Positions 8,818-63,469 of a stretch of DNA of 64,000 nt are shown here, piece after piece (the stretch's first letter is position 1; every line of letters starts with the position of its first letter). The position numbers and the translations under genes were made by a program. The notes below the pieces were generated by a model. The model was not told the DNA's origin, did not search any database, and worked only from the letters and a program-made list of their open reading frames with translations. Source of the stretch: Desulfonatronovibrio sp. (GTDB lineage: Bacteria > Desulfobacterota > Desulfovibrionia > Desulfovibrionales > Desulfonatronovibrionaceae); the NCBI GenBank assembly GCA_003566455.1, contig PXDF01000227.1:19250-83249 (forward strand). The letters are read 5' to 3'.

Positions 8818-8997
8818 CCCGTCCAGCTCCATTCATACTATGGGGTGACCCGGAAAATCCCTGAATCCCCAACTCCCTCAATTCCCGAATTCTTATTCAC
8901 TGACCACTGCCTGTCCTCATGAGAGATGAGCGGTGAGCCTCTTCCCAACTCATCTCTCACTGCTCACCGCTTCTTCTGTCATCTCTTCCCTCGGCCC
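8818..8997. repeat. composite palindromic spacer element (family 4), convergent-gene intergenic
   Basis: Interleaved complements: gagagatgag 8921-8930 with ctcatctctc 8949-8958, and gcggtgagc 8930-8938 with gctcaccgc 8962-8970. An ~80-nt block is homologous in inverse orientation to 16410..16490. The shared box ttcactgaccactg is at 8896-8909. Confidence 0.5.
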
Positions 8998-9861
8998 TCA
9001 AAAAATCATTCTCTTGGAAAATCCCTTTCCCAGCACATTAAAAGTATTCTCAATGATCACAAAGGCCTCAGGATCATTGGTGAAAATGATTTCTTCCAGC
9101 CTTTTGAGCTGGAAGTTATTGACAACGGTAAGAACAATTTTTTTGCGCTCCCCAGAATAAGTTCCTCTGCCATACAAATAGGTTGACCCCCTCTGAATCT
9201 GCTGGCCGATCAACTTGACCATCTTTTCAGGAATTTCAGTTATAATCAGAACCATCTTGCGCTGGTTGAACATGGCCATAAAATAATCGGCCACAAGGGC
9301 GGTCACAAATACGCTGGTCAGAGAATAGAGCACGATATCAGTGTTCAGAAACATAAATCCAAAGGCGAAAAGGGCCACATTAAAGTAAAAGCTGCTCTGG
9401 CCGATTCGCACATTGAATTTCTGAAATAAAATCACGCAGATTATATCCAGACCCCCGGTTGATCCAAATGACCTCAGGCCTATTCCCAGACCAGCTCCAA
9501 GGAGAATCCCATAGCTCAAAGCTGCCAGAAAGTGATCCTCAATTGGCAGCTGAAGATGTATTGTTTCCAGAAAAAAAGCTGTGGCAATCAGGCCATACAG
9601 GCTGTAAAAGAAGAATCTGCGGCTCACAAGCAAAAAGCCGGCCGCAAACACCGGGATGTTAAGAATCAACAGCCAGACGCCCGGGCTTAATAATCCCGTC
9701 ACATAGTAAAAAAGAAGGCTCAGGCCGGAAAAACCTCCGGCAATAAACTCATGATGGATGGCAATCCCGTTGATGCCTGTCGCAATTACCAGACCAGCCA
9801 CGGTAAGCAGACTAAGACACCAGAAATGCCCGTAAATAAATTTCCTGATAAATGCAGACAT
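8998..9861 (-). CDS. YitT family membrane protein (DUF2179 C-terminal domain)
   Basis: Five-TM N-terminal part plus a C-terminal soluble domain, typical of YitT. Confidence 0.85.
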   Translation of the reverse strand: MSAFIRKFIYGHFWCLSLLTVAGLVIATGINGIAIHHEFIAGGFSGLSLLFYYVTGLLSPGVWLLILNIPVFAAGFLLVSRRFFFYSLYGLIATAFFLETIHLQLPIEDHFLAALSYGILLGAGLGIGLRSFGSTGGLDIICVILFQKFNVRIGQSSFYFNVALFAFGFMFLNTDIVLYSLTSVFVTALVADYFMAMFNQRKMVLIITEIPEKMVKLIGQQIQRGSTYLYGRGTYSGERKKIVLTVVNNFQLKRLEEIIFTNDPEAFVIIENTFNVLGKGFSKRMIF

Positions 9862-13950: not shown

Positions 13951-14082
13951 ATTGAGCGACTTTTCATGTAACTGTTTGATAAGCCTGTCATGACGATAAA
14001 CCTGAGGGGAAAGGCAATCTCTTCATAACCGTCAGGGATTGCTTCGTTTCCCTCGCAATAACAGATAAAAATCGCTCAATTC
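13951..14082. repeat. MITE-like intergenic repeat, family 1, copy 2
   Basis: Ends are attgagcgacttttcatgtaactgtttgataagcctgtcatgacg and cctcgcaataacagataaaaatcgctcaat. The internal gcaatc...gattgcttcg hairpin matches the other copies. Confidence 0.55.
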
Positions 14083-14087
14083 TGGTT

Positions 14088-15263
14088 CTAGTCAAACTGA
14101 GCATCATGCAGCCGCCAGTATACATCAGAATATTGAATGTCCGGGTCTTCCCCGGCCATGTCAAAAGCTGTTTTTCCCTGGGCGTTCTTCAATTTTACAT
14201 CTGCTCCGGCATTCAGAAGGACTCCGATAACCCTGGGATCTTTATTTCTTTTGGCAGCCCACATCAGTGCTGTCTTGCCGTCTTCATCCCTGGCGTTGAC
14301 CATGGCACCGGCATTGAGCAGGGCTCTGACCACCTCATGGCTATTGAAGCCAGCGGCAAGCATCAATGCTGTCCAGCCATCCCGGTCCCTTTGATCCACG
14401 TTTGCTCCGGCGTTAATAAACGCGTAGACTACTTCCGGCCTGTTGTTGTCGCGGGCCGCGCACATGAGTGCAGTCCAGCCGAATTCATCCCTCGCGTCCA
14501 CGTCAGCTCCCGCCTTGAGCAAAACCTCAACAACCTCGCGGTCATTGTATCCGGCAGCCATCTTCAGGGCTGTCCAGCCCTTTTCATTCCTCGCATCCAC
14601 CTCAGCTCCCGCCTTGAGCAGGACCCTGACGATCTCTTGATTATTGAACATGGCAGCCGTCATCAAAGCTGTACGGCCATATTTATCTCTTGCATCCACC
14701 CTGGAGCCCACATCGATCAATACCCTGGTCACCTCCGGGTCATCATTTCCATGGGCCGCCCACATGAGCACTGTCCGACCCTCTTCATCACGAGCGTCCA
14801 CTCTTGCCCCTGCAATTAGCAAGTCCAGGACAGCATCGTAGCTGTTATAACCTGCCGCCGCCATCAGGGCTGTCCAGCCGTTCTTGCTACGGGCATCCAC
14901 TCTGGCATTGGCATCAATCAGCGCCCTGATAACTTCAGGATAAGAGTTGTTCAAAGCAGCCCACATCAGGGTTGACCGGCCCTCGCTGTCCGCGGCGTTC
15001 ACATCAGCTCCGGCATCAATCAGCGCCCTGACAATTTCAGGACCCTGGTTATCCCGGACCGCCCTCATTAAAGCGGTCCAACCTTCTTCATCCCTTGCGT
15101 CTATATGGTCTTGTGAATCCAGAACCGCTTGCACACTTAATTGGGTGTCATTTACAGTCTCTGGAACGGGCTTGACTGATACGGCGGGCTTATCCGGTGA
15201 AACACAGGAAAACAGAAAACAGGCAAAAACAACAATCAAGATAACATGGCCGGTATTTTTCAT
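14088..15263 (-). CDS. ankyrin-repeat lipoprotein (about 10 ANK repeats)
   Basis: Lipobox LFSC after the signal peptide. Tandem 33-aa repeats follow (GxTALMxAAxxN...EVVRxLLxAGAxVxARD). Confidence 0.9.
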   Translation of the reverse strand: MKNTGHVILIVVFACFLFSCVSPDKPAVSVKPVPETVNDTQLSVQAVLDSQDHIDARDEEGWTALMRAVRDNQGPEIVRALIDAGADVNAADSEGRSTLMWAALNNSYPEVIRALIDANARVDARSKNGWTALMAAAGYNSYDAVLDLLIAGARVDARDEEGRTVLMWAAHGNDDPEVTRVLIDVGSRVDARDKYGRTALMTAAMFNNQEIVRVLLKAGAEVDARNEKGWTALKMAAGYNDREVVEVLLKAGADVDARDEFGWTALMCAARDNNRPEVVYAFINAGANVDQRDRDGWTALMLAAGFNSHEVVRALLNAGAMVNARDEDGKTALMWAAKRNKDPRVIGVLLNAGADVKLKNAQGKTAFDMAGEDPDIQYSDVYWRLHDAQFD

Positions 15264-15381
15264 GATCCACTCCTTTTTATGGATATAGCAATGCTTGCCA
15301 GCCTGAAGCCATCAAAACTGAGCAACCTTTTACTAAAATTTTAGTCTGGAAACATCAAGCCACTTTTTTAGAAACCAGATG

Positions 15382-15424
15382 CTTATGTTTACACTTCGCG
15401 TCAAACGCGTTTTGTAAACATAAG
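15382..15424. repeat. REP-like palindrome, family 2, copy 1 (imperfect)
   Basis: cttatgtttacacttcgcgtcaaacgcgttttgtaaacataag. Same core as 37487..37531 and 63023..63064. Confidence 0.7.
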
Positions 15425-15492
15425 AATTTAACTGGCCTTTCCTCAAATAAAAAAAGGGCTAACATCTTTATGACGCAAGCCCTTGAATTTCC

Positions 15493-15568
15493 TGGTGCCG
15501 AGGGACGGAATTGAACCGCCGACACGGGGATTTTCAGTCCCCTGCTCTACCGACTGAGCTACCTCGGC
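15493..15568 (-). tRNA. tRNA-Phe (anticodon GAA)
   Basis: The reverse complement GCCGAGGTAGCTCAGTCGGTAGAGCAGGGGACTGAAAATCCCCGTGTCGGCGGTTCAATTCCGTCCCTCGGCACCA folds as a cloverleaf with an encoded CCA. Confidence 0.95.
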
Positions 15569-28546: not shown

Positions 28547-29854
28547 TTATCTGTCCAGCCGCTGTTCAACACTTCTGGCATGGGCTTCCAGACCCTCCAG
28601 CCTGGCCATGCGCGCGATCTTTGGACCATGTTTGTCAAGATAACGCTTATTGGTTGATAGAATGCTGATATTTTTCTGAAAAGCTTGCACTGACAGGGCC
28701 TGGGAAAACCTGGCCGTGGTCAGGGTGGGCAGGACATGATTAGGTCCGGCAAAATAATCCCCAACAGGCTCAGGAGTGTTGCTGCCCATGAACACCGCTC
28801 CGGCATTCCGGATCAATCCCAGACAGGACCACGGATCTTCAACGCACAGCTCAAAATGTTCAGGGGCGATGCCATTGGCAAGCTCAAGTCCAGTTTCCAG
28901 ATCAGGAACCAGAAAGGAAGCGCCCCAGTCATTGAGGGCCTTGCGGGCGATATCCCCTCTGGGAAGAAGACCTGTCTGTTTTTCAAGCTCTTCCCGGGTG
29001 TTATTGATAAGCCTTTCTTCCGTTGATATCAGATAAGTTCCGGCCAGAGGATCATGTTCCGCCTGAGAAAGCAGGTCCATGGCAATATAGTCCGCCCTGC
29101 CGGTATGATCAGCCAGAACCGCCACCTCGCTTGGACCGGCAATCATATCTATGCCCACCAGGCCCACCAGCATCTTTTTGGCCATGGTCACAAAAATATT
29201 GCCCGGTCCGGCAATTATGTCCACCTGATTGATGGTTTCAGTGCCATAGGCCATGGCGGCGACAGCCCAGGCAGAACCGCACAGATATATTTCATCAATG
29301 CCCAGAATGTGAGCTGTGGCCAGGATATAAGGATTCAGGGTTTTGTCATTTCTTGGAGGTGAAATCACGCATATGGACTCAACCCCTGCCACCCGGGCCG
29401 GGATGGCATTCATGAGCAGACTGGAAATTAGGGGCGTCTCTCCACCCTGTCCGCCGGGCACATAAAGCCCTGCCCTGCCGACAGGAGCCACCATCTGCCC
29501 CATAATGGCCCCGTCAGAATCAGGAAAAAACCAGGAGTTCTGTTTCTGACGCTCATGAAAGGCCCTGATTCTGTCAGCTGCCTCTCGGATTATATCCAGG
29601 TCTTTTTCGTCGACCTCCTGGAGTGATTTTTCAATCAGAGCGGGATCAAGGGATATGTCTTCAGCCTCAAAACCCTCACAGTCAAACTTTTTTGTATACT
29701 CAACAATGGCCCGGTCTCCACTTTCCATGACCTTTTGAAGAATTTCCCGGACAGGTCCTTCTACTGACGGATCAGATTCCATTCTTCCCAGCAGCCACGA
29801 CTTTATAGGTGGCCAGTCGCTTCCTGATGAGTAAGAAAAATTTCTGCCAAACAT
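28547..29854 (-). CDS. hisD: histidinol dehydrogenase
   Basis: HisD motifs (PGGQGGETPLISSLLMN, AGPSEV, SQAEHD). Start moved to the ATG at 29854 after a GGAGAT SD. Confidence 0.95.
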   Translation of the reverse strand: MFGRNFSYSSGSDWPPIKSWLLGRMESDPSVEGPVREILQKVMESGDRAIVEYTKKFDCEGFEAEDISLDPALIEKSLQEVDEKDLDIIREAADRIRAFHERQKQNSWFFPDSDGAIMGQMVAPVGRAGLYVPGGQGGETPLISSLLMNAIPARVAGVESICVISPPRNDKTLNPYILATAHILGIDEIYLCGSAWAVAAMAYGTETINQVDIIAGPGNIFVTMAKKMLVGLVGIDMIAGPSEVAVLADHTGRADYIAMDLLSQAEHDPLAGTYLISTEERLINNTREELEKQTGLLPRGDIARKALNDWGASFLVPDLETGLELANGIAPEHFELCVEDPWSCLGLIRNAGAVFMGSNTPEPVGDYFAGPNHVLPTLTTARFSQALSVQAFQKNISILSTNKRYLDKHGPKIARMARLEGLEAHARSVEQRLDR

Positions 29855-30009
29855 ATTATCTCCGGAACAAAATGTTGTGATATTGGGGGGACAGGTCGAA
29901 GCAAAAAGCACAATATCGAACTATAGGATGGATCAAAATATTAATCAAGAAAAAGGAGCCTGTCTGATATTTTTCTTATCTGTCCTGAGATAACGATTGC
30001 AAATTCCAA

Positions 30010-31965
30010 CTAAAAACCGGTTTTTGCCAGCACAGCACTCTTCCCGGGAACATCCGGCATAAGAGAAGTTATCCTGGTGGGCTGAATCCCAAGGCGCTTT
30101 TCATAAATCACCTTGTAGGTAAATATCTTTTCCACGTAATCTCTTGTTTCAAAAAACGGGATATTCTCAACCCAGATATCAGCGGCAATGGTCTGGTCAT
30201 CAGGCAGCCATGAACTGACCCTGTTTGCTCCGGCGTTATAAGCGGCAGTTGCCAGTACCGGATTTCCCTGGAACTCATCCAGGCGTTTCTTCAGGTAAAA
30301 GGTCCCGAAACGGATATTGGTTTCCGGGCTCAGAAGCATGTTAGGATTCCTGAAAGCTTCTCCCATGATGGATGCAATCAGCCTGCCCGTGGCTGGCATT
30401 ATCTGCATGATCCCCAGGGCACCTGCAGGTGAACTGACATCGGGCATGAACATGCTCTCCTGTCTGATCAGGGCAAATACCCAGGTGGGCTCAAGGTCTC
30501 TCAACCTGGAATAATTGATTATAAAATCGGGATAGGAAACCGGAAATCTGAGAATGAGATCAGCAAATTCACGGGCATTGGCTGCGGCAACTATTGCCCG
30601 GTCATGCCAGCCCATGTCGTGGGCCAGCAAAGCCGCGGCCCGCATATTTTCCGGGCTCTTGCCGGAAAGAGAGCTGTTCCATTCCCTTCGCGCGTCAACC
30701 ATACGTTCCAGATAAAATAATTCCCTGGCCCTCATTATTCCCGGCTCTCGCTTTATGTTCAGGACATCATTTTCATGGGATGAAATAGGCCTGTGCTCAA
30801 TGCGGTAGGACTGGTCAACCCTGTCCGCTGCCAGCAGGGAAAAGTAATTCTGCCTGCCCAGTATGCTCTGATAAAGGGCGGCAGCTTCATGCGCCAGCCC
30901 CATTTCCTCAAGAATCCTTCCTCGCCAGTAAATCCAGCGCGCAGAGTTTTTATCTGAATCATCCAGACTTTCCAGGGCAGATAAAGCCTCCTGCCAGTTC
31001 TTCTGATAAAGGGCGTTTCTGACATGCCACTGTCTGAGTCTTGAAGTGACAATATCAGCATCCAGACTGTTTATATATTCCAGGGTTTCAGGGTGCTTTC
31101 TCAGGGCAAGGTAAATGGCAAGTTCCTGTTTGACCGCGGACGTGTCCATGGATTCAAGATCATACCTTTTCTCCAGTTCCCCCCACTGCTCAAGTGCCTT
31201 TTGGGTGTCCCCCCTTATGAGGATGCTCATTCCCTGGAAAAGAATCTTTTCCGCGACGAAATGATCCTTGTCCGGCCAGTTGACTTCCAGGGTTTTTATT
31301 GGCCGGTTGATTACTTCCAGCCAGAGATCAAGCCAGGGCTGTTCCTCGCCGGGCAAATATCTTTTCAGGTATGCAGCCAGTGATGTCCGGCCCTGGTCAA
31401 TAGCCAGTTCAATCCTTTGCCAGACCAGACCGGTTGTAAGATTGCCGCTGCTTCTCCAGCCGTCAAATACCGGATCGCATTCCTTGGGCCTGGAATTTCC
31501 GTGCAGCCAGAGCCTTTCTGCCTCTTTCCATGCTTTTTCGGTCCGGCCTGTTTCCATTAGAGCTCTGGCGTATGAGCATTGCAGGGATTGCGTGGGATGA
31601 CCGCGGTAATCCCTGGCCAGCTTATGCCAGTGCCTGTCTGCGGCCAGATGGGCCAGCCAGTCCTGTCTTAATCTGTCTGCCAGCGGAGTTGAGCTGTATT
31701 CGTCCAAAAACGCCAGGATCCGTTCTTCATGCTCAAGAGAGACATTTTTGCGGATCTGCTCATATACAAGATATGGATATAGAGGATAATCAGCAAGCTT
31801 TGCAAGGAGCTCATTGAATTCCTGAATGCGGCCTTTTTTCAAAGCCTTTTCAGCAGCCAGAAAATCCTGCCTTTGCTGTTCAAAATCTGCTCCTGCGGGG
31901 TGTGAAATTATTAAAGTCAAAAGCGCCACTGAAAGTACAAAAAGAATAGAAAGCCTGTTCAGCAT
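30010..31965 (-). CDS. slt: soluble lytic murein transglycosylase (Slt70-like)
   Basis: Signal peptide, a long superhelical N-terminal region and a C-terminal SLT domain (IRQESMF...GIMQIMP...AAYNAG). Confidence 0.85.
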   Translation of the reverse strand: MLNRLSILFVLSVALLTLIISHPAGADFEQQRQDFLAAEKALKKGRIQEFNELLAKLADYPLYPYLVYEQIRKNVSLEHEERILAFLDEYSSTPLADRLRQDWLAHLAADRHWHKLARDYRGHPTQSLQCSYARALMETGRTEKAWKEAERLWLHGNSRPKECDPVFDGWRSSGNLTTGLVWQRIELAIDQGRTSLAAYLKRYLPGEEQPWLDLWLEVINRPIKTLEVNWPDKDHFVAEKILFQGMSILIRGDTQKALEQWGELEKRYDLESMDTSAVKQELAIYLALRKHPETLEYINSLDADIVTSRLRQWHVRNALYQKNWQEALSALESLDDSDKNSARWIYWRGRILEEMGLAHEAAALYQSILGRQNYFSLLAADRVDQSYRIEHRPISSHENDVLNIKREPGIMRARELFYLERMVDARREWNSSLSGKSPENMRAAALLAHDMGWHDRAIVAAANAREFADLILRFPVSYPDFIINYSRLRDLEPTWVFALIRQESMFMPDVSSPAGALGIMQIMPATGRLIASIMGEAFRNPNMLLSPETNIRFGTFYLKKRLDEFQGNPVLATAAYNAGANRVSSWLPDDQTIAADIWVENIPFFETRDYVEKIFTYKVIYEKRLGIQPTRITSLMPDVPGKSAVLAKTGF

Positions 31966-32178: not shown

Positions 32179-32775
32179 CTATGGCTTGAATTGACCGCAA
32201 AAACAGCAGATTTCTTGATTGTTCAACCTGTGCAGATAAAGCATCCGGGCTATTCTGAAAACAGTATCATTATCTTTTGGATCAAAAAAATACCTGGTTC
32301 TGTTAGGGTCTATCTCGGCTTCCCGAAGAATTTTATGCACAGCGCTTTTACTTATCTTTTGCAGGGAGGGATGACCCTGCTTTATGCAGTTTCTGCGGAT
32401 ATATGAGGCAAGCCGGGAAAATGTCCAGCGCTGAACATCATAACCCAGATCTGAGGGTCTGGAACATGCAAGATCAATCACCCAGGCTTTGTCTTGGTCA
32501 CTTATCAATGGAGGCCGGCCCGGTCGAGGCAGATCAAACAGAGCGGTCATGACACCTTCGGACAAAGCTTTATCAATACATCGCCCAATTGTTGGCCGGC
32601 TTGTCTGTTCATTTTTTGCGATACTGTTTATACTCTCATTTCTGGAATATCGCAACAGAATACTGGCCCGCTTAACCTGTGCAAAAGGGGCGGTCCGGGA
32701 CTTGCTGATGGATTCCAGTTCCTGGAGTTCATCCGGCTCCAGGTTCAGGGGATCTCTTTTCCTGAAAGATGACAT
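32179..32775 (-). pseudogene. IS630-family transposase remnant (N-terminal HTH part only, no DDE domain)
   Basis: RASILLRYSRNESINSIAK...PRPGRPPLISDQDK...WTFSRLASYI...SKSAVHKILREAEIDPNRTRYF matches the IS630 HTH/winged-helix N-terminus. The ORF ends where the catalytic domain should begin. Confidence 0.65.
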
Positions 32776-33236
32776 GATTGATTTCCTCCTGTTTTTTGGG
32801 TTTACTCCTTCCTATAACCTTATCTTTTGGAAAATGAATCAGGATTAAATGGTCTTGAGCCAGTGTCATGAAATTCTCTTGTCATGAGAAAAACCTGATT
32901 AGTTTGATAAAAAAATAAAGCAAAGCGAGGGTTAAAAGCAGGCTAAACAACGCGATGTCTTTATTTCAGACGCCTGGTCATGCAGGCCAATAATTGATCG
33001 TGAGTGCCGGTTTTTCCAGAACTTCGCAAGGGTCATTGGATACATCTTCAGAAAAGTCCTGTCCGGGTGAAGCTCAATAGATGTTCAGCAACCAAATCAA
33101 TTTGACCAGGCCTTTATTTAGTGTAGTTAATAAAATTTGTGCCTGACTCTTTTATTTATGTCAATAATAAATCTTATGCAGGATCAAGTCCGCCTGGCAG
33201 CACCGGTTTCATTTCCAATGCCCGGTGGAAGTCCAA

Positions 33237-33273
33237 GAAAAAGTCCTGTCTGCAGCTTTATTCTCCAGACAGG
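33237..33273 (-). terminator. rho-independent terminator candidate
   Basis: On the minus strand, cctgtctggagaataaagctgcagacagg is followed by actttttc. It lies 27 nt after the stop of the 33300..33956 ORF. Confidence 0.55.
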
Positions 33274-33299
33274 GCAGTCCCTGGATTGCCCCGTTCCTT

Positions 33300-33956
33300 T
33301 CATTTCAATACCCGTCCGCCGGGTTCTTTCATCTTATGCCTGCCGAGTCTGAGCTCCAGATCAAGCTGTTTCTGATATGATACGGTAAAAATCTCTTCGT
33401 CAAGCCACGGCTTTTTCCTGGTCATAACCCTCTGCCAGCCCGGGGTATTTTCCTGGTACTCCTGATAACCTCTGGCATGCTTGTGCAGAAAGTCAAGCAG
33501 GGCCTGGCGCGGCTTCAGGGTCCGGTCGTCAAGAGTGGTGAGCTGTTTCTGGTTAAGAACAAAAATCAGGCATTTGGCCACAGAGATACTGTCGCAATCA
33601 TTTATCTCCTCACAGGCCCGGGCCATTCTCCGGGTCAGAAATTCAGGTATAGACAGGGCAAGCCCCCAGGTGGTTTTTGTGGAGTCCGGATCAAATACCG
33701 CGTAATACGCCAGGTCATCTTCAGGGAAAAGATCAACTATGGCCGCGATGACCGCCTTTTCCGGATCCTCGTCTGGCTCCGCCAGGACCAGATAGCCAAA
33801 CTCCAGCATCCCCAGGAGCAGAACAGTCTGTCCAGCCGCGGTTGCCCGGGCAGTGTACCATTTAAAACGGATAAGGTCTTTAAAAGGCCTGGACTGGAGA
33901 TAATCTCTGAACTCTTCTTCCAGGTATCCGGGGATAAAAATATGATGTCTGATCAT
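33300..33956 (-). CDS. hypothetical protein (218 aa, no recognisable domain)
   Basis: A long ORF with no competing ORF and a terminator downstream. I see no motif I can name. Confidence 0.5.
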   Translation of the reverse strand: MIRHHIFIPGYLEEEFRDYLQSRPFKDLIRFKWYTARATAAGQTVLLLGMLEFGYLVLAEPDEDPEKAVIAAIVDLFPEDDLAYYAVFDPDSTKTTWGLALSIPEFLTRRMARACEEINDCDSISVAKCLIFVLNQKQLTTLDDRTLKPRQALLDFLHKHARGYQEYQENTPGWQRVMTRKKPWLDEEIFTVSYQKQLDLELRLGRHKMKEPGGRVLK

Positions 33957-34162
33957 GGCTTTTACTCCTGCTGTCAGGAAAATCTTCTATATTGAAAACT
34001 AATCAAAAAACTTCAGAAATGTTATCAGCGGAATCCCCGGGGCTTTTAAGCCTGCGACAGCATTGCTCACGACGATAAGGCTTCAGTATTGGCAGGGAAA
34101 CGGGCTGCATGGTTTTGCCTGAAGGTCTTATGATTCAATGCTAAACTGGTTCATGATTATTG

Positions 34163-34302
34163 CCTGAATTGAGCGATTTTTCCTTTAACTGTCTGATAAG
34201 CCTGTTATTGCGAGTGAGTCTTCGAGCGCGGCAATCTCATAATAAATGGCTGAGATTGCTTCGCTTACCTCGCAATGACATAGAAAAATCGCTCAATTCA
34301 GG
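34163..34302. repeat. MITE-like intergenic repeat, family 1, copy 3 (perfect 20-bp terminal inverted repeats)
   Basis: cctgaattgagcgatttttc at 34163-34182 is the exact reverse complement of gaaaaatcgctcaattcagg at 34283-34302. It has an internal gcaatctca...tgagattgc hairpin. Confidence 0.7.
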
Positions 34303-34308
34303 TATTGG

Positions 34309-35067
34309 TTATGTCGGTTTGACTCCGGCAAATACCTGCATTGGATATTCACCCTCTCCCATGATAAAAGATTCATAAACATTGTCCAGCCCAAACTGTC
34401 TTACTTTAAGGCCAGCGTCCCTGAACAGGTAAAGCCATTGCTCCCGGGAGAAAAGTCCCAGCTTGTGAACATCGTTATAAATGCTCAGCCGGCCGGCCTG
34501 CCTGATCAGATAGACAATAGTGGCTTCATAGGTACAAGGGTCATGCTTCGGGATATAGTTATTCTCAAAAATGGTGACTTCCTTGTCCCCTTTAGTGCCG
34601 GTATAACAAAAATTGTTTTCCCGGAACTCCTCCTGGATTTTTGCCGTGATCAGGAGGACCCCGCCGGGATTCAGATGCCTGTTGGCGGTTTCAATGGCCA
34701 TTTTAAGTTCAGGAAGCGTGGACATGTAGTCAATGCTGTCCGGAATAACAACAGTGTCAAAGCATTCCTTGAGATCAACGCTTCTCATGTCACCCAGCAC
34801 ATAGGCTGCTTCCGGGTTGGTATGCCGGGCGATTTCAAGCATTTTTTCACTGATGTCCACTCCAGTGACTTTAAAGTGTTTCTTGAAGACATAGTCATTA
34901 ATGCCTGCTCCGCAGGCCAGATGAAGCAGTGTTTCCGGCTCAATCTCAGAATGTTCTTTAATGAGTCTGACATAAAATTCTGTTTCCCGGGCATAGTCGC
35001 CTGGAGAAGAAATAATGGATTCAGTCCAGGCAAGATCTCCATAACTGAGCCAGTTATTATTTCGCAT
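34309..35067 (-). CDS. class I SAM-dependent methyltransferase (small-molecule type)
   Basis: Motif I LLHLACGAG and motif post-I VTGVDIS. Start moved to the ATG at 35067 after a GGAGAA SD. Confidence 0.8.
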   Translation of the reverse strand: MRNNNWLSYGDLAWTESIISSPGDYARETEFYVRLIKEHSEIEPETLLHLACGAGINDYVFKKHFKVTGVDISEKMLEIARHTNPEAAYVLGDMRSVDLKECFDTVVIPDSIDYMSTLPELKMAIETANRHLNPGGVLLITAKIQEEFRENNFCYTGTKGDKEVTIFENNYIPKHDPCTYEATIVYLIRQAGRLSIYNDVHKLGLFSREQWLYLFRDAGLKVRQFGLDNVYESFIMGEGEYPMQVFAGVKPT

Positions 35068-35361
35068 TAATTTTCTCCGGTTTTTTGTATGACCAGCTGT
35101 TTTTTGCACGGATATTTTCACTAATAACCACCTGTCCTCTGAATTATATCTTTGTTGCTGCACATTATCCATGATTTTCTCCTGGCGCAAAACTATTTCC
35201 AGCCGGCTGATGGCAGGCTGAAACTGCTCCAGCCATCCGCCTGATCCAGGATATCGACATGAGGGGCATTGTTGACAGTAAACAAAACCTGGATAATAAA
35301 AAAAGTACTCCTTCTGAATTAGCCAGTCATAAACACCAAAAACTAAACAGAATAAATCACC

Positions 35362-37392
35362 ATGGCAAAAATAGAAAAAAGGCTTTCACTGATTCCTTCC
35401 AAAGCGGCTGAACCCCGAACACTATATCTGCAAAAACCCAAAGACTTTGAAAACCTGATATCAGGCTACACAAACATCAAAGCTGTATCATACGTGGCTT
35501 CCCCCAGCCTGGTCTTGTCCATATTTGAAAAGTACGGTTTCAGAAAAATGCTGCTTCTGGTCGGGGAAAACATATCCATCAATCACTATAAAAAGGAACT
35601 GGGCAGCAAACAGATGGACCTGATCAAAAAAATGATGCACCTGGTTCGCGCCCAAAAGCTCACCGTCTATTTTCCCAAAAACAAGACCATCCATTCCAAA
35701 TTCTATATTTTGAACAATGGCGACAACCACAGAGTAATCGTTGGCAGCCCGAATTTCAGCGAAACAGCAAAAAAAGCCATAAAGCAGCACAATTACGTGG
35801 TGTATTGGGATTTAAAATCAAAAGACCAGCTGCTGGAAGCTTTTAACAAGGATTTCACAGCCCATTTAAAAAACTCGGTTCTTTTCCTGGACGATCTGCT
35901 CAAGCTCATCGAAAACCGGGACGAGCCTGAAGAAAAGATCATCCGGACGTGGATTTCTCAAGACGTCGGTGAAATTGCTGACATTGTCGAATCTGAAACC
36001 TCCAGGATATTGTCGGATCTTACCCGGCAAGCCTTGAAGTCTGTTGAGGACCCGGAATCCTCAGGTCAGCAGGAAGCACAGACAGTCGATGAAAAAGGGG
36101 AAATCAGAGTTATCATCCCTTCCGATATTCGGACCAGAGACGGAATAGAAAAAAAGCTCTACCCGCTGAATCCCACAATAGTTGATTCTGAACTGAGACT
36201 GAAACCCAATGTTTTCTCCAGCTTCGTGAAAAAATCATGCGGCATTCCCCTTATGGGCGTGGATAGGCAACTCAAAAAGGTATACCTGCATATGGGCGAC
36301 CATCAGGACCTGTTGTTCATGCCTCCAGAGGACAGAAGCCTGGTTGATCAGGGCCTTGAGTATATTGAAAGCTATGTTGAATCCTACAGGCTGGGCGAAT
36401 GTCTGGATTACAATAAAATTCAGATGAATGTGTTTGAGGCGATTTTATACGTGTTATCCGCCCCCTTCGCGCACGAATTCAAAACAATGAAGAAACAGGT
36501 GGATATGTACTCTCGTGGACCGGAATATCTTTATCTTTACGGACCTTCCTTCAACGGCAAGACAAACTTCCTGCGTTTCTGCCTCAAGCTTGTCACCGGC
36601 AAGAATCTGGAACCCATTTCTCAGGAACATTTCAATAAGTCCAAAATAATGGGCGCCAAGACCTTTGCCACTGTTTTTCCGCTCATGTTCGACGACGTCA
36701 CCATAGGATCCAATCCAACCATTGAAAAAGTCCTTAAAAATTATTGGGAGGTGTGGTGGACGTCTGATCATCCTGTGCCTCAGATAATCATGACCACCAA
36801 CAAGCCCAATCCTCCTGAGTGGGCCAAGACCAGGATCAAGAGAATCAATTTTGATGTCAAATTTGACCAGAAGAACGTTCAGGCCAGCGAAACACTGAAC
36901 CGGATTTTGAATACCCGCTGTGGCTTCTTTAAATTATTTGCCTGGAAATACCTTGATAAACTGAACCAGCCGCTTGATTCCATCAAGGAGTACCTGCTTG
37001 TAGATGAATTAAGTCTGGCCAGAACAGTTTTCAGGGAACTTTATGAATTCACTGACAGGCCAGTGCCGGAATATTTCCCCAGCGTTCCAGTAGATAACAT
37101 TTACGACACAGACAAAATGGAATGGATTGAACTTTTCAGAAACAACGTCCTGACCGAGAACCAGCAGGCCAATAAAGTTATTGTCCAGGCAGATAAAAAT
37201 ATAGCCACCTATGAAGTGGAAAAATTTATGGCCTACCTTCCCCAGGGAGTAAAAGCCAAAAGAAGCGGTCACGTGATTATTATTGAAGGTCGGGAAAAAT
37301 ACCTGGAATGGATGAACCTGTCTCAAAAGGAAAAAGGATTGTGGAAAAGATTTCTGGATAAGTTCACCCCCGCTCGCACCGGTAGATCATAA
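35362..37392 (+). CDS. PLD/HKD-family nuclease domain fused to SF3-helicase-like P-loop NTPase (orphan)
   Basis: The HKD motif H111-S-K113 ...VIVGSPNFS (aa 111-133) is Nuc/NgoFVII/BfiI-like. Walker A is LYGPSFNGKT (aa 392-401), Walker B is LMFDD (aa 441-445), and the SF3 motif C is IIMTTN (aa 475-480). Confidence 0.75.
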   Translation: MAKIEKRLSLIPSKAAEPRTLYLQKPKDFENLISGYTNIKAVSYVASPSLVLSIFEKYGFRKMLLLVGENISINHYKKELGSKQMDLIKKMMHLVRAQKLTVYFPKNKTIHSKFYILNNGDNHRVIVGSPNFSETAKKAIKQHNYVVYWDLKSKDQLLEAFNKDFTAHLKNSVLFLDDLLKLIENRDEPEEKIIRTWISQDVGEIADIVESETSRILSDLTRQALKSVEDPESSGQQEAQTVDEKGEIRVIIPSDIRTRDGIEKKLYPLNPTIVDSELRLKPNVFSSFVKKSCGIPLMGVDRQLKKVYLHMGDHQDLLFMPPEDRSLVDQGLEYIESYVESYRLGECLDYNKIQMNVFEAILYVLSAPFAHEFKTMKKQVDMYSRGPEYLYLYGPSFNGKTNFLRFCLKLVTGKNLEPISQEHFNKSKIMGAKTFATVFPLMFDDVTIGSNPTIEKVLKNYWEVWWTSDHPVPQIIMTTNKPNPPEWAKTRIKRINFDVKFDQKNVQASETLNRILNTRCGFFKLFAWKYLDKLNQPLDSIKEYLLVDELSLARTVFRELYEFTDRPVPEYFPSVPVDNIYDTDKMEWIELFRNNVLTENQQANKVIVQADKNIATYEVEKFMAYLPQGVKAKRSGHVIIIEGREKYLEWMNLSQKEKGLWKRFLDKFTPARTGRS

Positions 37393-37486
37393 ATACCTCA
37401 AGGTCTGTAACATTCTTTAATCTCCAGAGGCACAAGGCGCTGAAGATCCCAGACCATAGAAGCTGAATTGATATTCTTCATCCGAG

Positions 37487-37531
37487 CTTATGTTTACACT
37501 TCGCGTCAAACGCGAAGTGTAAACATAAGCA
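37487..37531. repeat. REP-like palindrome, family 2, copy 2 (perfect)
   Basis: gcttatgtttacacttcgcg-tcaaa-cgcgaagtgtaaacataagc has 20-bp perfect arms and a 5-nt loop. Confidence 0.85.
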
Positions 37532-37655
37532 GTTATGCCGGGGAATAATCCGTTCTGATTCTTATTTGTTTTGCCTGAATATAAACTGGTCCGCCCCCGG
37601 ATCAGAAGATATGCATCCCTGGTTATTCTGAAGCTGTTTATTTTAACCGTTTGTT

Positions 37656-37709
37656 GAAAAAGTCCTTATCGACAGGTGTTCAAAGATTCTCACGCCTTGG
37701 CGTGGAAAG
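37656..37709. repeat. intergenic repeat family 3, copy 1
   Basis: gaaaaagtccttatcgacaggtgttcaaagattctcacgccttggcgtggaaag has the same core as 58531..58585 and contains the hairpin cacgcc-tt-ggcgtg. Confidence 0.55.
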
Positions 37710-37748
37710 TAGCAATTGGGAGATTTTCAACGGTTCTGTCAAGATGCC

Positions 37749-38174
37749 TTACGAGTCTGCCTGATCCGGCTCAACAGGCTTTCGCATCTTTTTTATCCGG
37801 CTCCTTCTGGCCTTGGTGTCCAGGCGTTTCTGCCGTGCTGAACTGGTCGGGATCGTGGGCCTGCGTTTCTTCTTTTCCCTGGTCACGCTTATAATAATCT
37901 CCCTGAGCCTGTTCAGGGCATCTTCCCTGTTTTTCTCCTGCGATCTGCTCCTGCTGGACTTGATGACCACCACACCGTCACTGGTTACCCGCCTGTCCTT
38001 GAGTCTCAAAAGCCTCTGCTTGTAGACCTCGGGCAGGGAGGACGAGCTTATGTCAAAGAAAAGCTGTACAGCTGACGAAACCTTGTTCACGTTCTGTCCG
38101 CCCGGCCCCCGGGACCGGACTGCCTGAAACCTTATTTCAGATTCGCTGATGAATACGTGGTCGGTGATTTTCAC
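37749..38174 (-). CDS. arfB: alternative ribosome rescue factor ArfB (peptidyl-tRNA hydrolase, YaeJ)
   Basis: GGQ motif RSRGPGGQNVNKV plus a basic C-terminal tail. Confidence 0.9.
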   Translation of the reverse strand: MKITDHVFISESEIRFQAVRSRGPGGQNVNKVSSAVQLFFDISSSSLPEVYKQRLLRLKDRRVTSDGVVVIKSSRSRSQEKNREDALNRLREIIISVTREKKKRRPTIPTSSARQKRLDTKARRSRIKKMRKPVEPDQADS

Positions 38175-38349
38175 GGCATTTTATCTCTGCTGGAGCATGT
38201 TCAAAAACCTTTTTGAAAATCAGATCCTGGCAAGCCCTGGAAATTTCTTCCTTCATAAAGACTTTAAGTCAGTTCCCGGATTCATCCGGAATCCATGCGC
38301 AAAAGGATCAACCAGGCAGGGAAAAGATACAACTATCAAAATCCGCGAT

Positions 38350-38770
38350 TTAACCCAGGTAACGTTTGAGGATATCTCCGGCGGCAAGTCGATTTTTCCG
38401 GGTCAATGACCTGTTCTGAAGACGGCGTCCCAGATTGTTCAGCTGCAGGCTCATGCGCGGGTTATCCTTAAGCCTTTGGGCGTGCCGGTCCAAAAAATCC
38501 CAGTACAGTGTGGAAAACGGACAGGCATCCGCACCGACGCTTTGTTCAGGATCAGGTTTCGCATTATTTTTCCATGTTTCAGTTCAGATTCATACCCGGC
38601 CGATGCCTGCTGAAAAGGTTAGACAAATGAACGGGCTCTGTTTTCCCTTTGCCGGGATCCTGGCACTCTGACTCATGGGGCCGGACCTGAATGAACTGCT
38701 TCAATCCAGATTTCTGCAGCAGCATGCACCATGTGGGATCTAGTGTCCAGAGAACCCCGCAAAGCTGTCA
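38350..38770 (-). pseudogene. remnant of FeS-type (6-4) photolyase / CryB-PhrB family gene (C-terminal ~130 codons, frameshifted)
   Basis: The minus-strand frame ending at TAA 38350-38352 reads ...[37 protein letters not shown].... This is the PhrB-type C-terminal Cys-cluster region. Upstream pieces (GPMSQ...) occur in other frames and there is no N-terminal 350 aa. Confidence 0.6.
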
Positions 38771-38890
38771 GACAGACTTCTGAATATGTTTCAGGGCCGT
38801 TGAGACTTACCTCTCAGCCTGGGAAAAAGATTGATTTAAAGCCTGAGCCGGCAGATACCCTTGATTTCTTCTTCAAACAGGGGGCCGTCC

Positions 38891-39940
38891 TCAATGGGCC
38901 GCAGACAGCAGGTAGTGGGAAACGAACCATGAATTGCCGCGATTCCAGGCAAACAATTCCGAGCAGGCCATCAGAAAAATCCGCCAGCGCTGAAGCAGTA
39001 CCTGCCCGGAATCTCTGAAATCCCGGGGCAGTGCATTATCCAGCACCTTCAAGGCGTCCCGGCTGTTGCTGTCCAGGGTCCTCAGCCAGGCCTCCAGGGT
39101 GCGGGCATAATGCAGCCCGTTGATCCGCCAGTGGCCCTCCAGCCTTAACTGATCCTGGAAATAAAGCATGAGATCGTCGGAAGGCATCATGCCTCCGGAA
39201 AAAAAATGTCTGCCCATCCAGTCTCCAGGACCCTGTTTGAAAAAATACGCGTACTTTTCATGCGCAAAAACGTGCACAAAGACTGCCCCGGAGGGTGTGA
39301 GCCAGCCGGCAATACGTTTGAGCAGACGGCGCCAGTTACGCATATGTTCAAACATTTCCACGCTTACAATCCGATCAAACAAAACCCGGGGGTGAAAATC
39401 GTTCATGTCGGCACGTCTGGCCTGAAGATTGCGGAGGGAGTCTTCCGCGGCCTTACGGTTGATGTAGTCCACCTGGTTTTGAGCGTTGGATACAGCCATG
39501 ATTTTTGAATCAGGGTGCTTTCGGGCCAGCCACAGGGAAAGCGAGCCCCATCCGCAGCCAAGATCAAGGACGTTCATCCCGTTCTCCAGGCCAGCTCGCC
39601 TGGACACAAGGCAGAGCATAGCCTCTTCTGCAGCTCCAAGGTCATCTCCCGGCCCGGGTTTGTCTTGAAAGAGGCAGCAGCTGTACTTCATGGCCGGACC
39701 AAGCATTAACCTGAAGAATCCCGGGGGGACTTCGTAATGCTGAACATTGGCCAGATCAGGAACAACAGCAATAGGACAGGAATCCATTTCCCGGATGAGA
39801 GCCTTTTTCTGATCCAGATCAAGACTTGCTTCTTTAGTGCACAGCCCCTGCAGAACCCTTGCATGCCTCAAACGAATGCCCTGGCGGATCAGTAGGTCAG
39901 GAAGCAGTCCCTGTTCGGCCAGTTTGATGATAAGATACAT
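38891..39940 (-). CDS. cyclopropane-fatty-acyl-phospholipid synthase family methyltransferase
   Basis: HYEVPPGFF, YSCCLF, VLDLGCGWGSL and SVEMFEHM motifs of the CFA/mycolic acid methyltransferase family. Confidence 0.85.
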   Translation of the reverse strand: MYLIIKLAEQGLLPDLLIRQGIRLRHARVLQGLCTKEASLDLDQKKALIREMDSCPIAVVPDLANVQHYEVPPGFFRLMLGPAMKYSCCLFQDKPGPGDDLGAAEEAMLCLVSRRAGLENGMNVLDLGCGWGSLSLWLARKHPDSKIMAVSNAQNQVDYINRKAAEDSLRNLQARRADMNDFHPRVLFDRIVSVEMFEHMRNWRRLLKRIAGWLTPSGAVFVHVFAHEKYAYFFKQGPGDWMGRHFFSGGMMPSDDLMLYFQDQLRLEGHWRINGLHYARTLEAWLRTLDSNSRDALKVLDNALPRDFRDSGQVLLQRWRIFLMACSELFAWNRGNSWFVSHYLLSAAH

Positions 39941-51617: not shown

Positions 51618-52697
51618 TTAAAACTGAGGACTGTTTAAGATTACAGAATAGGCTCCAAACAATGCCCACGCCTGATCACCTGTCTGCAGGCCCATGCGTT
51701 TCTGGCTGGCTGTTGTGACTATTGCACATAATTCAGTACCTTCTTCCAGGGTCAGTATCACCTCGGTATTCACCCGCCCGGAACAGATTCCGGCAACAGT
51801 TCCCTGTATCCGGTTCTCCGCACTGATATGGCCCGCTCCTTCAGAACAGGCAATGAATACTGTGGGCGCCTTGATTTCTGCTGTAACTAATGAACCCTTT
51901 CTCAGGCGCATCTTTTTCAGGCTGCCGTTGGTAATGATTGAAGAGATGCTTATACCTCCAAGAGTAAGCAGAACTATCCCAGCCTGAATATCACCCTTGA
52001 TTATATTGATTATTTTGCCGAAAAATATATTTCGGGCACTGGTCCTGCGACTGCTTTCACGGTCCATGTGCCTTCTTAAAATGTGCTGAATATCCTCGTC
52101 AGAAAATTCAAGCAGAGTCGAGGCTGAGCTGGGCCTGGAATGACCAAGCAGCTTTTCTATAACCGGGAAAGGTAAATTGGCCCGCAACAACTCAACGGAT
52201 CTTGAGCGACGCAAAGTACTGGGGTTACCAAAATCTCTGGGAAATCCACAGGCTTGTGCGCGTTCATAAAACTTTCGACGGACATGGCCCGGGTCAATGT
52301 GAAACAGTGAATTATCATTATTAAGCCTGTATCCTTTGACATATGAATGAAGGTCTTTTACCAGATCCTCCGGTATCTCTATTGATCTTGAGCTTCCTAA
52401 AAAGTTTGAACCCAGTCTGACAATCCGGTCTTCAAAGATAATAGCATCAGATTTCAGGTTCAGAATTTCATGCAGCCTGGCTCCTGTATGGCGGATCAAC
52501 AGGAATATAAGCAGGATTCTTTGTCTTGATCGGCGAATGTCGGGCCTTTGTGAATCCCGCGCCCATTTTCGAAATGATTGTTCCATTTCTGCGAGCTGGA
52601 CCATGTCCAGAACCTTTGCCCCGGGGGAAAGGGCAAAAACGTTGCTTCCGGGTGTCTTTCTATCAAAACGGCAGTTCTTGGAAGAAGGGTTGGTCAT
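51618..52697 (-). CDS. TunR-like regulator: tyrosine-recombinase-fold domain fused to tandem TOBE/Mop oxyanion-binding domains
   Basis: Integrase-like HTGARLHEIL...LRRSRSVELL...LLGHS, with F (LLEF) where the catalytic Tyr is expected. Two Mop/TOBE repeats follow (ARNIFFGKIINI..., AENRIQGTVAGI...). Confidence 0.7.
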   Translation of the reverse strand: MTNPSSKNCRFDRKTPGSNVFALSPGAKVLDMVQLAEMEQSFRKWARDSQRPDIRRSRQRILLIFLLIRHTGARLHEILNLKSDAIIFEDRIVRLGSNFLGSSRSIEIPEDLVKDLHSYVKGYRLNNDNSLFHIDPGHVRRKFYERAQACGFPRDFGNPSTLRRSRSVELLRANLPFPVIEKLLGHSRPSSASTLLEFSDEDIQHILRRHMDRESSRRTSARNIFFGKIINIIKGDIQAGIVLLTLGGISISSIITNGSLKKMRLRKGSLVTAEIKAPTVFIACSEGAGHISAENRIQGTVAGICSGRVNTEVILTLEEGTELCAIVTTASQKRMGLQTGDQAWALFGAYSVILNSPQF

Positions 52698-63022: not shown

Positions 63023-63064
63023 CTAAGTTTACACATTGCGTCAAACGCGAAATGTAAACATAAG
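63023..63064. repeat. REP-like palindrome, family 2, copy 3 (imperfect)
   Basis: ctaagtttacacattgcgtcaaacgcgaaatgtaaacataag has the same loop, tcaaa, and arms as the other copies. Confidence 0.65.
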
Positions 63065-63469
63065 GGCTTTTTCTAACGTAACAACTTGATATTTATTGTC
63101 ATTCAAAAAATACCGGATAGATTACATACCTGATTACTGCCATGGCCAGGATTTCCACAAACATGAGACCCTCCTTGAGATTAGACAGTGTTTAGTGGTC
63201 ATTTCTAATCAAGAAATCCGGAAAGGCTATCGGTCTGCTGCTCTGGTCCGATCCCTAATCCCAATGCCGATTGTTTTCCTGGTTGCTGGACCGGCTAAAA
63301 GCGTTTACTAATTATCTCAATGAATATTCACTTATCACTTGCTCATATTCCCCTGCTCATCTGCAACTATTTATTTGTCATGGCCTGACCGGAACGACAA
63401 AAAGACAACCCTTTGATTTAGACAACTTGATTTGTACCGAACTGAAAAATCAAACCTCAAGGAAGGTCA

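Follow-up and report, generated by a model that had tools for sequence, protein, structure and literature searches.

The gene described here, an open reading frame (ORF) at positions 35362–37392 of a 64,000-nucleotide stretch of DNA from Desulfonatronovibrio sp. (contig PXDF01000227.1; the whole stretch analysed is called the window below), has its closest described relative in APAP, a haloarchaeal system composed of a long-A prokaryotic Argonaute (pAgo) and a phospholipase D (PLD) protein (Cheng et al. 2024, mLife, PMC11442185). Of 63 haloarchaeal ago genes, 28 are paired with a gene for the latter, 'AgaP', described as an N-terminal PLD-domain protein (PMC11442185). Produced alone in Haloarcula hispanica, AgaP of Natrinema pellirubrum is toxic in a manner that requires H105, K107, G157, S158 and N160, and the toxicity is suppressed by Argonaute (PMC11442185). 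Plasmid restriction depends on the catalytic residues of AgaP and not on those of Argonaute, and AgaP enhances immunity to the single-stranded DNA (ssDNA) virus HHPV-2 without abortive infection (PMC11442185). So far AgaP has been seen as no more than a PLD nuclease, one in need of Argonaute for safety and use, and the published work regards it as an N-terminal PLD protein only; the words 'ATPase' and 'Walker' never occur in the text of PMC11442185.

We find that the window gene is a stand-alone bacterial, Argonaute-free member of the AgaP family (Aq_aa27 in Pfam). Given the full-length homology to the plasmid- and virus-restricting AgaP, it probably encodes a one-gene defence enzyme, and we put at roughly 0.55 the probability that this enzyme is a self-contained, nucleoside triphosphate (NTP)-dependent DNA nuclease acting against foreign DNA (plasmids, possibly phages). 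Two aspects are new relative to the literature searched, namely the conserved helicase-like NTPase module, which makes up about two thirds of the protein and is absent from the published account, and a large bacterial clade carrying the gene alone. In bacteria and some archaea, lone genes with this architecture and no Argonaute are widespread. As far as we searched, the NTPase module of the family is undescribed, and searches of the literature for PF27394/Aq_aa27 or for a fusion of PLD with a superfamily 3 (SF3) helicase returned nothing relevant.

Several other systems share parts of this design. SauUSI (type IV; PDB 7clg) and NgoAVII/CglI (R-protein 4rct plus a separate ATPase) also combine a single-HKD PLD nuclease with an NTP-driven motor, and the general logic is alike, that of a translocating or NTP-gated nuclease directed against foreign DNA. 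Their motor is, however, an SF2 helicase, whereas that of the window protein is AAA+/SF3-like, and unlike them the window protein has no recognizable SRA-like or B3-like DNA-recognition domain. In replicative helicases of mobile elements (Cch, PriRep1, T antigen, D5/E5, NrS-1 and NS1), Walker A, Walker B and motif C (…TTN) are arranged and spaced as in the window protein, with a conserved arginine after them, and these helicases align with it structurally over ~300–460 columns, ATPase-flanking domains included. This relationship is distant, with TM-scores of 0.22–0.34, and goes undetected by Pfam, PHROGs and PDB sequence profiles; moreover, in contrast to those helicases the window protein carries a PLD domain at its N-terminus and no primase, HUH or origin-binding domain, and at most loci genes of its family lie apart from replication genes. 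Finally, DrmC of DISARM and the PLD components of Mokosh likewise place a PLD-family nuclease domain in a defence context, but DrmC is a small PLD-only protein encoded in a multi-gene operon. Models of DrmC, ZacB and REase_II (PADLOC, NCBIfam) matched the window protein insignificantly (E 7.7e-4 to 0.075, 12–16 bits), the NCBIfam model DISARM_DrmC_I reaching 12.6 bits against a cut-off of 133 bits and PADLOC DrmC an E-value of 0.003. No DrmA/B/D or Mko genes were found near the window gene, nor any Azaca or type II restriction endonuclease partners.

The window protein is homologous to AgaP over its full length

According to the ORF listing, the gene at 35362–37392 (+) is complete and encodes a protein of 676 aa in which a PLD nuclease is followed by an AAA+/SF3-like NTPase; it is the sole long ORF on its strand in that stretch. 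The preliminary description of the window, made from the sequence alone, knew of no named system with this architecture. AgaP of APAP is such a homologue: N. pellirubrum AgaP aligned with aa 11–667 of 676 (BLASTP E 3e-67, 25% identity), and the alignment took in HxK, GSPN, Walker A, Walker B, motif C and R491. Both proteins belong to Pfam family PF27394, and in both the PLD domain comes first and is followed by connector, NTPase and C-terminal domain, with HxK, GSxN, Walker A/B, motif C and the arginine at the same positions. N. pellirubrum was also recovered as plasmid match H4 in the tblastn search described below; its AgaP ORF, 717 aa long, lies at 6989–9142 of pNATPE02 (locus L075). At this place the gene table shows three small 'hypothetical protein' features, yet the ORF is intact.

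Several differences separate the two proteins. The HKD motif is contiguous in the window protein (17 residues from H to G), whereas that of AgaP is split, HxK(x)~49GSxN, by an acidic insert of ~35 aa which is missing from the window protein. Walker A is of the canonical GKT form in the window protein but reads GKG in AgaP, and the hosts are bacterial and haloarchaeal, respectively. AgaP is paired with a long-A pAgo, while no Argonaute adjoins the window gene. Among ten haloarchaeal loci inspected, seven had the homologue directly beside a gene of ~840 aa with a Piwi domain on the same strand, the spacing ranging from an 8-bp overlap to a 139-bp gap; at locus H12 a small hydrolase gene lies between the two. 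At the remaining three loci the homologue sits among helicase, nuclease, restriction or NurA/SMC genes. In the window, by contrast, Pfam found no Piwi domain in the ten largest ORFs of the 64 kb, and tblastn with three haloarchaeal pAgos gave no match in the window or in the related bacterial and archaeal loci L001–L065 (~10 kb where contigs reach).

We also observed that a ~560-aa 'AAA family ATPase' adjoins the pAgo/AgaP operon in all six of the loci L068, L071, L073, L074, L075 and L077. A metallo-β-lactamase-fold hydrolase is encoded near the operon in L068 and L075, and a UvrD / PD-(D/E)XK / large-helicase trio in L077; the same trio stands beside an AgaP homologue in L070, without a pAgo, and in L076 genes for PD-(D/E)XK and UvrD proteins follow the pAgo. 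It may be that APAP belongs to a larger conserved island.

A PLD nuclease domain with a single HKD motif

To examine the architecture, we used an AlphaFold2 model of the window protein built from a 26-sequence alignment (mean predicted local distance difference test score, pLDDT, 84.4); residue conservation refers to the alignment of these 26 homologues, which are 22–77% identical. The N-terminal part (~aa 19–175; 35416–35886, +) was matched by Foldseek (PDB) to the NgoAVII R-protein 4rct, Nuc 1byr, FAM83, SauUSI, PLD3 and Tdp1 at a probability of 1.00; Nuc 1byr superimposes on it with TMt 0.63 and rmsd 5.2, and the best matches of the whole chain were SauUSI (E 1e-8) and NgoAVII-R (E 7e-7). 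With these fold matches in the AlphaFold model, the predicted PLD domain can be considered solidly assigned. The preliminary description had located an H111-x-K113 motif followed by VIVGSPNFS in this part of the protein, and both are indeed there. The single HKD motif, H111-S-K113 ... G128-S129-P-N131, is encoded at 35692–35754 (+), VIVGSPNFS comprises aa 125–133, and H111, K113, S129 and N131 are invariant. The motif is contiguous and 3 residues longer than canonical HxK(x)4D(x)6GSxN, with N118 replacing the D. Family members most often have a spacing of 17 from H to GSxN, as here (90 of 157 full-length members), and the HxK...GSxN pair is spaced by 17–21 in 133 of the 157.

An AAA+/SF3-like NTPase occupies the C-terminal part

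The PLD domain is followed by a helical connector (aa 176–226) and a short acidic stretch predicted with low confidence (aa ~227–247), together encoded at 35887–36102 (+). What had been described as a featureless linker of ~220 aa is mostly folded: helices span 177–226, pLDDT falls below 50 at 202–205 and 232–245 only, and aa 248–380 are folded (pLDDT 80–98) and conserved, the length of the connector varying in the alignment. The next segment, aa 248–345 (36103–36396, +; pLDDT 80–95), is a folded alpha/beta domain with strands in 248–317 which falls within the ~400-column Foldseek alignments to Cch and D5-type primase-helicases, and which possibly serves in DNA binding or oligomerization.

The P-loop NTPase core, of AAA+/SF3 type by Foldseek, comprises aa 346–505 (36397–36876, +). 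Walker A (LYGPSFNGKT, aa 392–401; 36535–36564, +), Walker B (LMFDD, aa 441–445; 36682–36696, +) and IIMTTN (aa 475–480) are all where the preliminary description had placed them, and their key residues are invariant or at least 90% conserved: G394, G399 and K400 in Walker A are invariant, as are P440 and D444 at Walker B, where D445 is at least 90% conserved. IIMTTN forms motif C/sensor-1, which together with R491, 11 residues past it, is encoded at 36784–36834 (+); N480 and R491 are invariant. The three motifs stand in SF3 order within ~100 residues, and it is by this order that motif C is given its putative role and R491 becomes a candidate arginine finger. In the 157 full-length family members, Walker A reads GK[TS] in 132 and GKG in 20. 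Between motifs B and C there is a conserved K459-x-x-W-E-x-W-W, modelled as helix plus coil with no clear hairpin. The chain ends in a helical domain with a small beta-hairpin (aa 506–650; 36877–37311, +; pLDDT 85–97) that is conserved in the family, with F526, D548, R554, P569, F572, P573 and W650 invariant.

When the C-terminal part was compared with the PDB, Foldseek returned SCCmec Cch (5dgk), SV40/JCV T-antigen, B19V NS1, MPXV E5, NrS-1 and classical AAA+ ATPases; against viral models it returned D5-type primase-helicases and helicases of parvoviruses or adomaviruses. A second, separate model covering aa 246–660 (pLDDT 87.8, predicted TM-score 0.86) gave Cch as the top match (E 4e-6), followed by PriRep1 (7pds), T-antigen, E5, NrS-1, RuvB and proteasomal ATPases. 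The SF3 matches (T-antigen, E5, NrS-1, PriRep1 and B19V NS1) had probabilities of 0.8–1.0, and TM-scores for the NTPase module were 0.22–0.34, with classical AAA+ proteins (proteasome, p97, RuvB) scoring alike. Sequence profiles were less informative. Pfam PLDc_2 matched the window protein below its gathering cut-off of 27 (E 2.4e-4, 21.4 bits), the C-terminal half had no match in Pfam, NCBIfam, PADLOC or PDB sequence profiles, and a PHROG 'DNA primase' match (E 1e-3) occurred in only one of the 26 members. The PLD and SF3-like calls of the preliminary description thus hold on structure, AlphaFold and Foldseek supporting both folds, while no match to a curated SF3, D5 or primase-helicase sequence family was obtained. 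On its motif order and remote fold, the C-terminal part appears to be an AAA+/SF3-type NTPase, not a proven SF3 helicase.

The family is large, patchily distributed and under purifying selection

A word-indexed search found 56 relatives, nearly all of 640–680 aa, with precomputed Pfam matches to PF27394 ('Aq_aa27'), RE_NgoFVII (PF09565), PLDc_2 (PF13091) and, in a few cases, Tdp1 (PF06087). The PF27394.1 match is precomputed for the window protein itself and nearly all homologues, although local hmmscan of the window protein gave none. When 1.84 billion cluster representatives were searched exhaustively with a profile, 1100 clusters (50% identity) matched at E≤1e-3, 780 at E≤1e-10 and 309 at E≤1e-30, and the full-length proteins among the top 150 matches cover almost the entire profile. 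With these 1100 clusters and a Pfam entry, the gene is far from the orphan it had been taken for. Pairwise dN/dS ratios of 0.05–0.075 indicate strong purifying selection, and since both catalytic sets are conserved, the two halves are being kept together by selection.

To survey the distribution, one pattern scan was run on one genome per species for 185,579 species; the 54 loci found are a lower bound and are patchily spread across phyla. The closest relatives (57–77% identity) come from Desulfonatronovibrio, Desulfohalobiaceae and Desulfovermiculus, which points to this group as the source of the window, and further loci from Dehalococcoidia, Elusimicrobia, Methanoperedens, Bacillota, Ignavibacteriales, Gemmatimonadaceae, WOR-3, Paceibacterota and Actinomycetota. 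A tblastn search of 72,556 plasmids gave 30 records with a homologue, and in 21 of these the match extended over at least 80% of the query; haloarchaeal megaplasmids (23–27% identity) make up most of the records, and an 83-kb Arcobacter plasmid and Athalassotoga pATS1 are also among them. In the latter the homologue adjoins a helicase / DNA-methyltransferase / helicase cluster. The same search of 50,697 phage records gave no match, and three scans of IMG/VR with narrow peptide patterns (family alignment, P0048 and P0056) confirmed no relative. Decayed copies occur as well: L033 and L038 carry premature stops or frameshifts, L064 has an internal deletion of ~320 bp, and L065 is a fragment of 160 aa.

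No conserved partner gene accompanies the family

We next consider the neighbours of family members, for which ORFs within 7 kb of 66 loci were clustered all against all. No family recurred in more than 6 of the 66 loci, so that no conserved partner gene was found; the largest clusters, from 6 and 5 loci, were histidine kinases and MNT-type nucleotidyltransferases. The window and related loci have the ORF alone in common, even when the comparison is with a Desulfonatronovibrio copy at 77% amino-acid identity. This agrees with the earlier reading of a single-gene unit, as the gene is solitary on its strand and the flanks differ in its closest copies, and homologues proved, as had been proposed for checking, to be patchy and non-syntenic with no fixed core-genome neighbourhood. 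Taken together, the patchy spread, missing synteny, differing flanks and decayed copies show the pattern of an accessory, frequently exchanged gene.

In two pairs of closely related copies, L012/L015 and L036/L064 (~90% DNA identity), similarity breaks off within 1–4 bp of the ORF ends, and the genes on either side bear no relation to each other. We considered such ORF-exact boundaries as a sign of an ORF-sized mobile unit and rejected it: synonymous divergence (dS) is 0.9 to >2 in most pairs, and this saturation explains the loss of flank similarity, save in the two pairs named. Neither inverted nor direct repeats bracketing the window gene were found, nor was a flank motif shared by the 18 loci compared. 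The suggestion of a mobile-element module is thus not supported by conserved ends.

Some details of individual copies may be recorded here. The Dehalococcoidia copies L044 (9890–9946) and L032 (2545–2598) have ~55 bp upstream of the gene in common (…GATGTTATACAATAA…), which is promoter-like and seemingly carried with it; other pairs have nothing in common outside the ORF. In L001, a Desulfohalobiaceae-like metagenomic contig, a 305-aa Y1_Tnp protein (IS200/RAYT-like) with a C-terminal helix-turn-helix (HTH) is encoded at 624–1541, 94 bp upstream of the homologue and on the same strand. Many metagenomic contigs end at or within the gene.

Proposed mechanism and alternative explanations

For the window protein we infer NTP hydrolysis, oligomerization, nuclease activity, a choice of target and a role in defence, which could be combined as follows. 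A single-HKD PLD nuclease is joined via a short acidic hinge to an NTPase module of ~430 aa, and the latter, by analogy with Cch, T-antigen and D5/E5, would oligomerize on DNA, probably as a ring, and use NTP for binding, unwinding or translocation on ssDNA or replicating DNA. A pair of PLD domains would be brought together, as happens in Nuc and BfiI, into a single active site able to cut DNA metal-free via a phosphohistidine intermediate, the targets being extrachromosomal or replicating DNA. Since AgaP is tethered and restrained by its long-A Argonaute whereas none is present here, control of the nuclease would have to be intrinsic (NTP- or DNA-gated) or result from low expression. Should the stand-alone form be able to defend alone, it would represent a compact, single-protein, NTP-driven and metal-independent nuclease system, and would hint at how Argonaute systems recruited a pre-existing autonomous effector. 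For APAP itself, we hypothesize that long-A pAgos, which lack unwinding of double-stranded DNA, may obtain it through ATP hydrolysis by AgaP.

A number of observations weigh against a function in defence. The window protein shares only 25% identity with AgaP and has its HKD motif arranged differently; AgaP is also the only family member studied experimentally, and as it is toxic without its Argonaute, the toleration of a partner-less version is hard to explain. The NTPase assignment combines remote fold likeness and motifs, without sequence-profile support. The genomic context adds little, for 97 immediate neighbours examined with Pfam and PADLOC are mostly housekeeping genes. Few are of defence type (type IIG restriction-modification, MNT nucleotidyltransferase, AAA_14/DUF4143 and PD-Lambda-2), and PADLOC 'mad2' matches, which are generic S-adenosylmethionine (SAM) methyltransferases, in part inflate the signal. 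A PADLOC check of the seven ORFs flanking the window gene (32179–39940) yielded no specific match. The defence-island signal is consequently weak for the bacterial clade; the defence module put forward in the preliminary description gains real support from the full-length homology to AgaP.

Keeping these points in mind, we weighed three other explanations. That the protein serves a plasmid or other mobile element by helping its replication, processing or competition (e.g. by degrading rival plasmids or host DNA), with chromosomal copies as remnants of integrated elements, is in our view unlikely, though it is the alternative with the most to recommend it. The closest structural relatives of the NTPase are replicative helicases of mobile elements (Cch, PriRep1, T-antigen, E5 and NrS-1), and homologues occur in 30 plasmid records, including the 83-kb Arcobacter plasmid, where the gene adjoins parA/parB and rep/dnaB. 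The homologue in L006 lies between VirB8/VirD4 genes (type IV secretion system) and ribonucleotide reductase, L005 resembles a phage or plasmid backbone, and the window copy is found beside an IS630-like stub and a repeat resembling a miniature inverted-repeat transposable element (MITE). Yet the carrier plasmids pATS1 and that of Arcobacter have annotated replication initiators of their own, most bacterial loci are ordinary chromosomal neighbourhoods, neither the phage records nor, within limited peptide patterns, IMG/VR gave a match, and the sole homologue tested acts in immunity against plasmid and virus (PMC11442185).

A repair function of the Tdp1 type, in which DNA ends would be cleared of protein or other adducts by the PLD domain while the ATPase unwinds or remodels the substrate, we regard as improbable. 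NCBI names several haloarchaeal homologues 'tyrosyl-DNA phosphodiesterase', a few members have precomputed PF06087 matches, Tdp1 structures were found by Foldseek (E ~2e-4 to 5e-4), and in Halobaculum the homologue is located ahead of a cluster of metallophosphoesterase / SMC ATPase / NurA / ATP-binding genes; but Tdp1 has two HKN half-sites per chain, whereas a single HxK/GSxN set is conserved in our alignment, and NgoAVII-R, Nuc and SauUSI are better matches than Tdp1. A rare, patchy and non-syntenic spread with pseudogenized copies is moreover unlike that of a housekeeping repair factor, and AgaP is toxic and plasmid-restricting. Least of all do we expect the gene to mobilize itself as a 'PLD-Rep', moving in a rolling-circle or Helitron-like manner after the PLD domain nicks DNA and stays covalently attached via phosphohistidine and the helicase unwinds, which would parallel HUH-SF3 Rep proteins and make the Argonaute-linked immunity of haloarchaea a later exaptation. 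PLD nucleases such as BfiI do form a covalent intermediate and can transesterify, the order of nuclease and SF3-like helicase mirrors parvovirus and CRESS Rep (parvovirus NS1 being among the structural matches), and both the contigs broken at or within the gene and the similarity ending 1–4 bp from the ORF ends in the closest pairs, with unrelated flanks, would fit, as would a helicase of mobile-element type. However, neither the window nor the 18 compared loci revealed terminal repeats, conserved termini, hairpins or a target-site pattern, only one copy was found per window or locus and no multi-copy genomes, and the palindrome that follows the gene recurs genome-wide and has no connection with it. 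An ORF-only unit would also lack a promoter and ribosome-binding site, saturated dS alone explains flank loss bar the two closest pairs, and the immune phenotype of AgaP again points elsewhere. A defence nuclease remains the reading we prefer.

Composition and surroundings of the gene

The GC content of the gene is 44.1%, against 48.5% for the window. It is indeed A/T-richer, as had been noted by eye, but since its GC at third codon positions (53.6%) falls within the range of host genes (51–64%), the bias is modest and the compositional anomaly mild. The gene belongs to a lower-GC stretch at 32.0–37.7 kb (44.9%, against 48.8% elsewhere in the window). Upstream of it, no Shine-Dalgarno sequence is evident and a promoter scan found no consensus; a TTGACA at 35272–35277 is followed by an A/T-rich stretch.

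On the left side, hisD (28547–29911, −) and a lytic transglycosylase gene (30010–31965, −) precede an ORF at 32179–32775 (−) matching HTH_32/HTH_29 only, consistent with the IS630 stub reported earlier. Between this stub and the MITE-like repeat, within the lower-GC stretch, lies an ORF of 218 aa without family (33300–33956, −; no Pfam or PADLOC match). The MITE-like inverted repeat at 34152–34313 had been credited with perfect terminal inverted repeats; the repeat exists, but its 31-nt arms (34152–34182 / 34283–34313) are 84% complementary, with one mismatched base in a 21-nt arm core. Its ~100-nt core holds a second small palindrome (34225–34265), it overlaps the 3' end of the neighbouring methyltransferase ORF, and a similar terminal sequence occurs at one further site, 14066–14086, with 3 mismatches. 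The methyltransferase (34309–35190, −) was considered as a restriction-modification partner and rejected, as it matches generic SAM-methyltransferase families and no DNA-methylase family.

The palindrome after the gene (37486–37530) is perfect, as described, with 21-nt arms, GCTTATGTTTACACTTCGCGT-CAA-ACGCGAAGTGTAAACATAAGC. It is a copy of a dispersed hairpin repeat of ~45 nt, with other, imperfect copies at 15381–15425 and 63023–63065, and as an element specific to the gene it was therefore rejected; the sole Rfam match is a chance miRNA. The repeat looks like a repetitive extragenic palindrome (REP)-like intergenic element of the host genome, and one copy lies ~70 bp from tRNA-Phe (15493–15568). 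An arfB-like gene with an RF-1 domain follows (37749–38174, −). The ~700 bp (38200–38890) between it and a CMAS-like methyltransferase gene contain short ORFs only (78–95 aa) and no Rfam match; a gene in decay or an extended regulatory region may account for them.

Elsewhere in the window, the Pfam scan covered the largest ORFs. The 391-aa protein encoded at 14088–15263 (−) consists almost entirely of ankyrin repeats (Ank_2 E 1e-105, 7 stretches), which is unusual in a free-living sulfate-reducer-like genome, and a 359-aa ORF at 51618–52697 (−) has two C-terminal TOBE domains in addition to a weak match to Phage_integrase (E 6e-9), an odd pairing.

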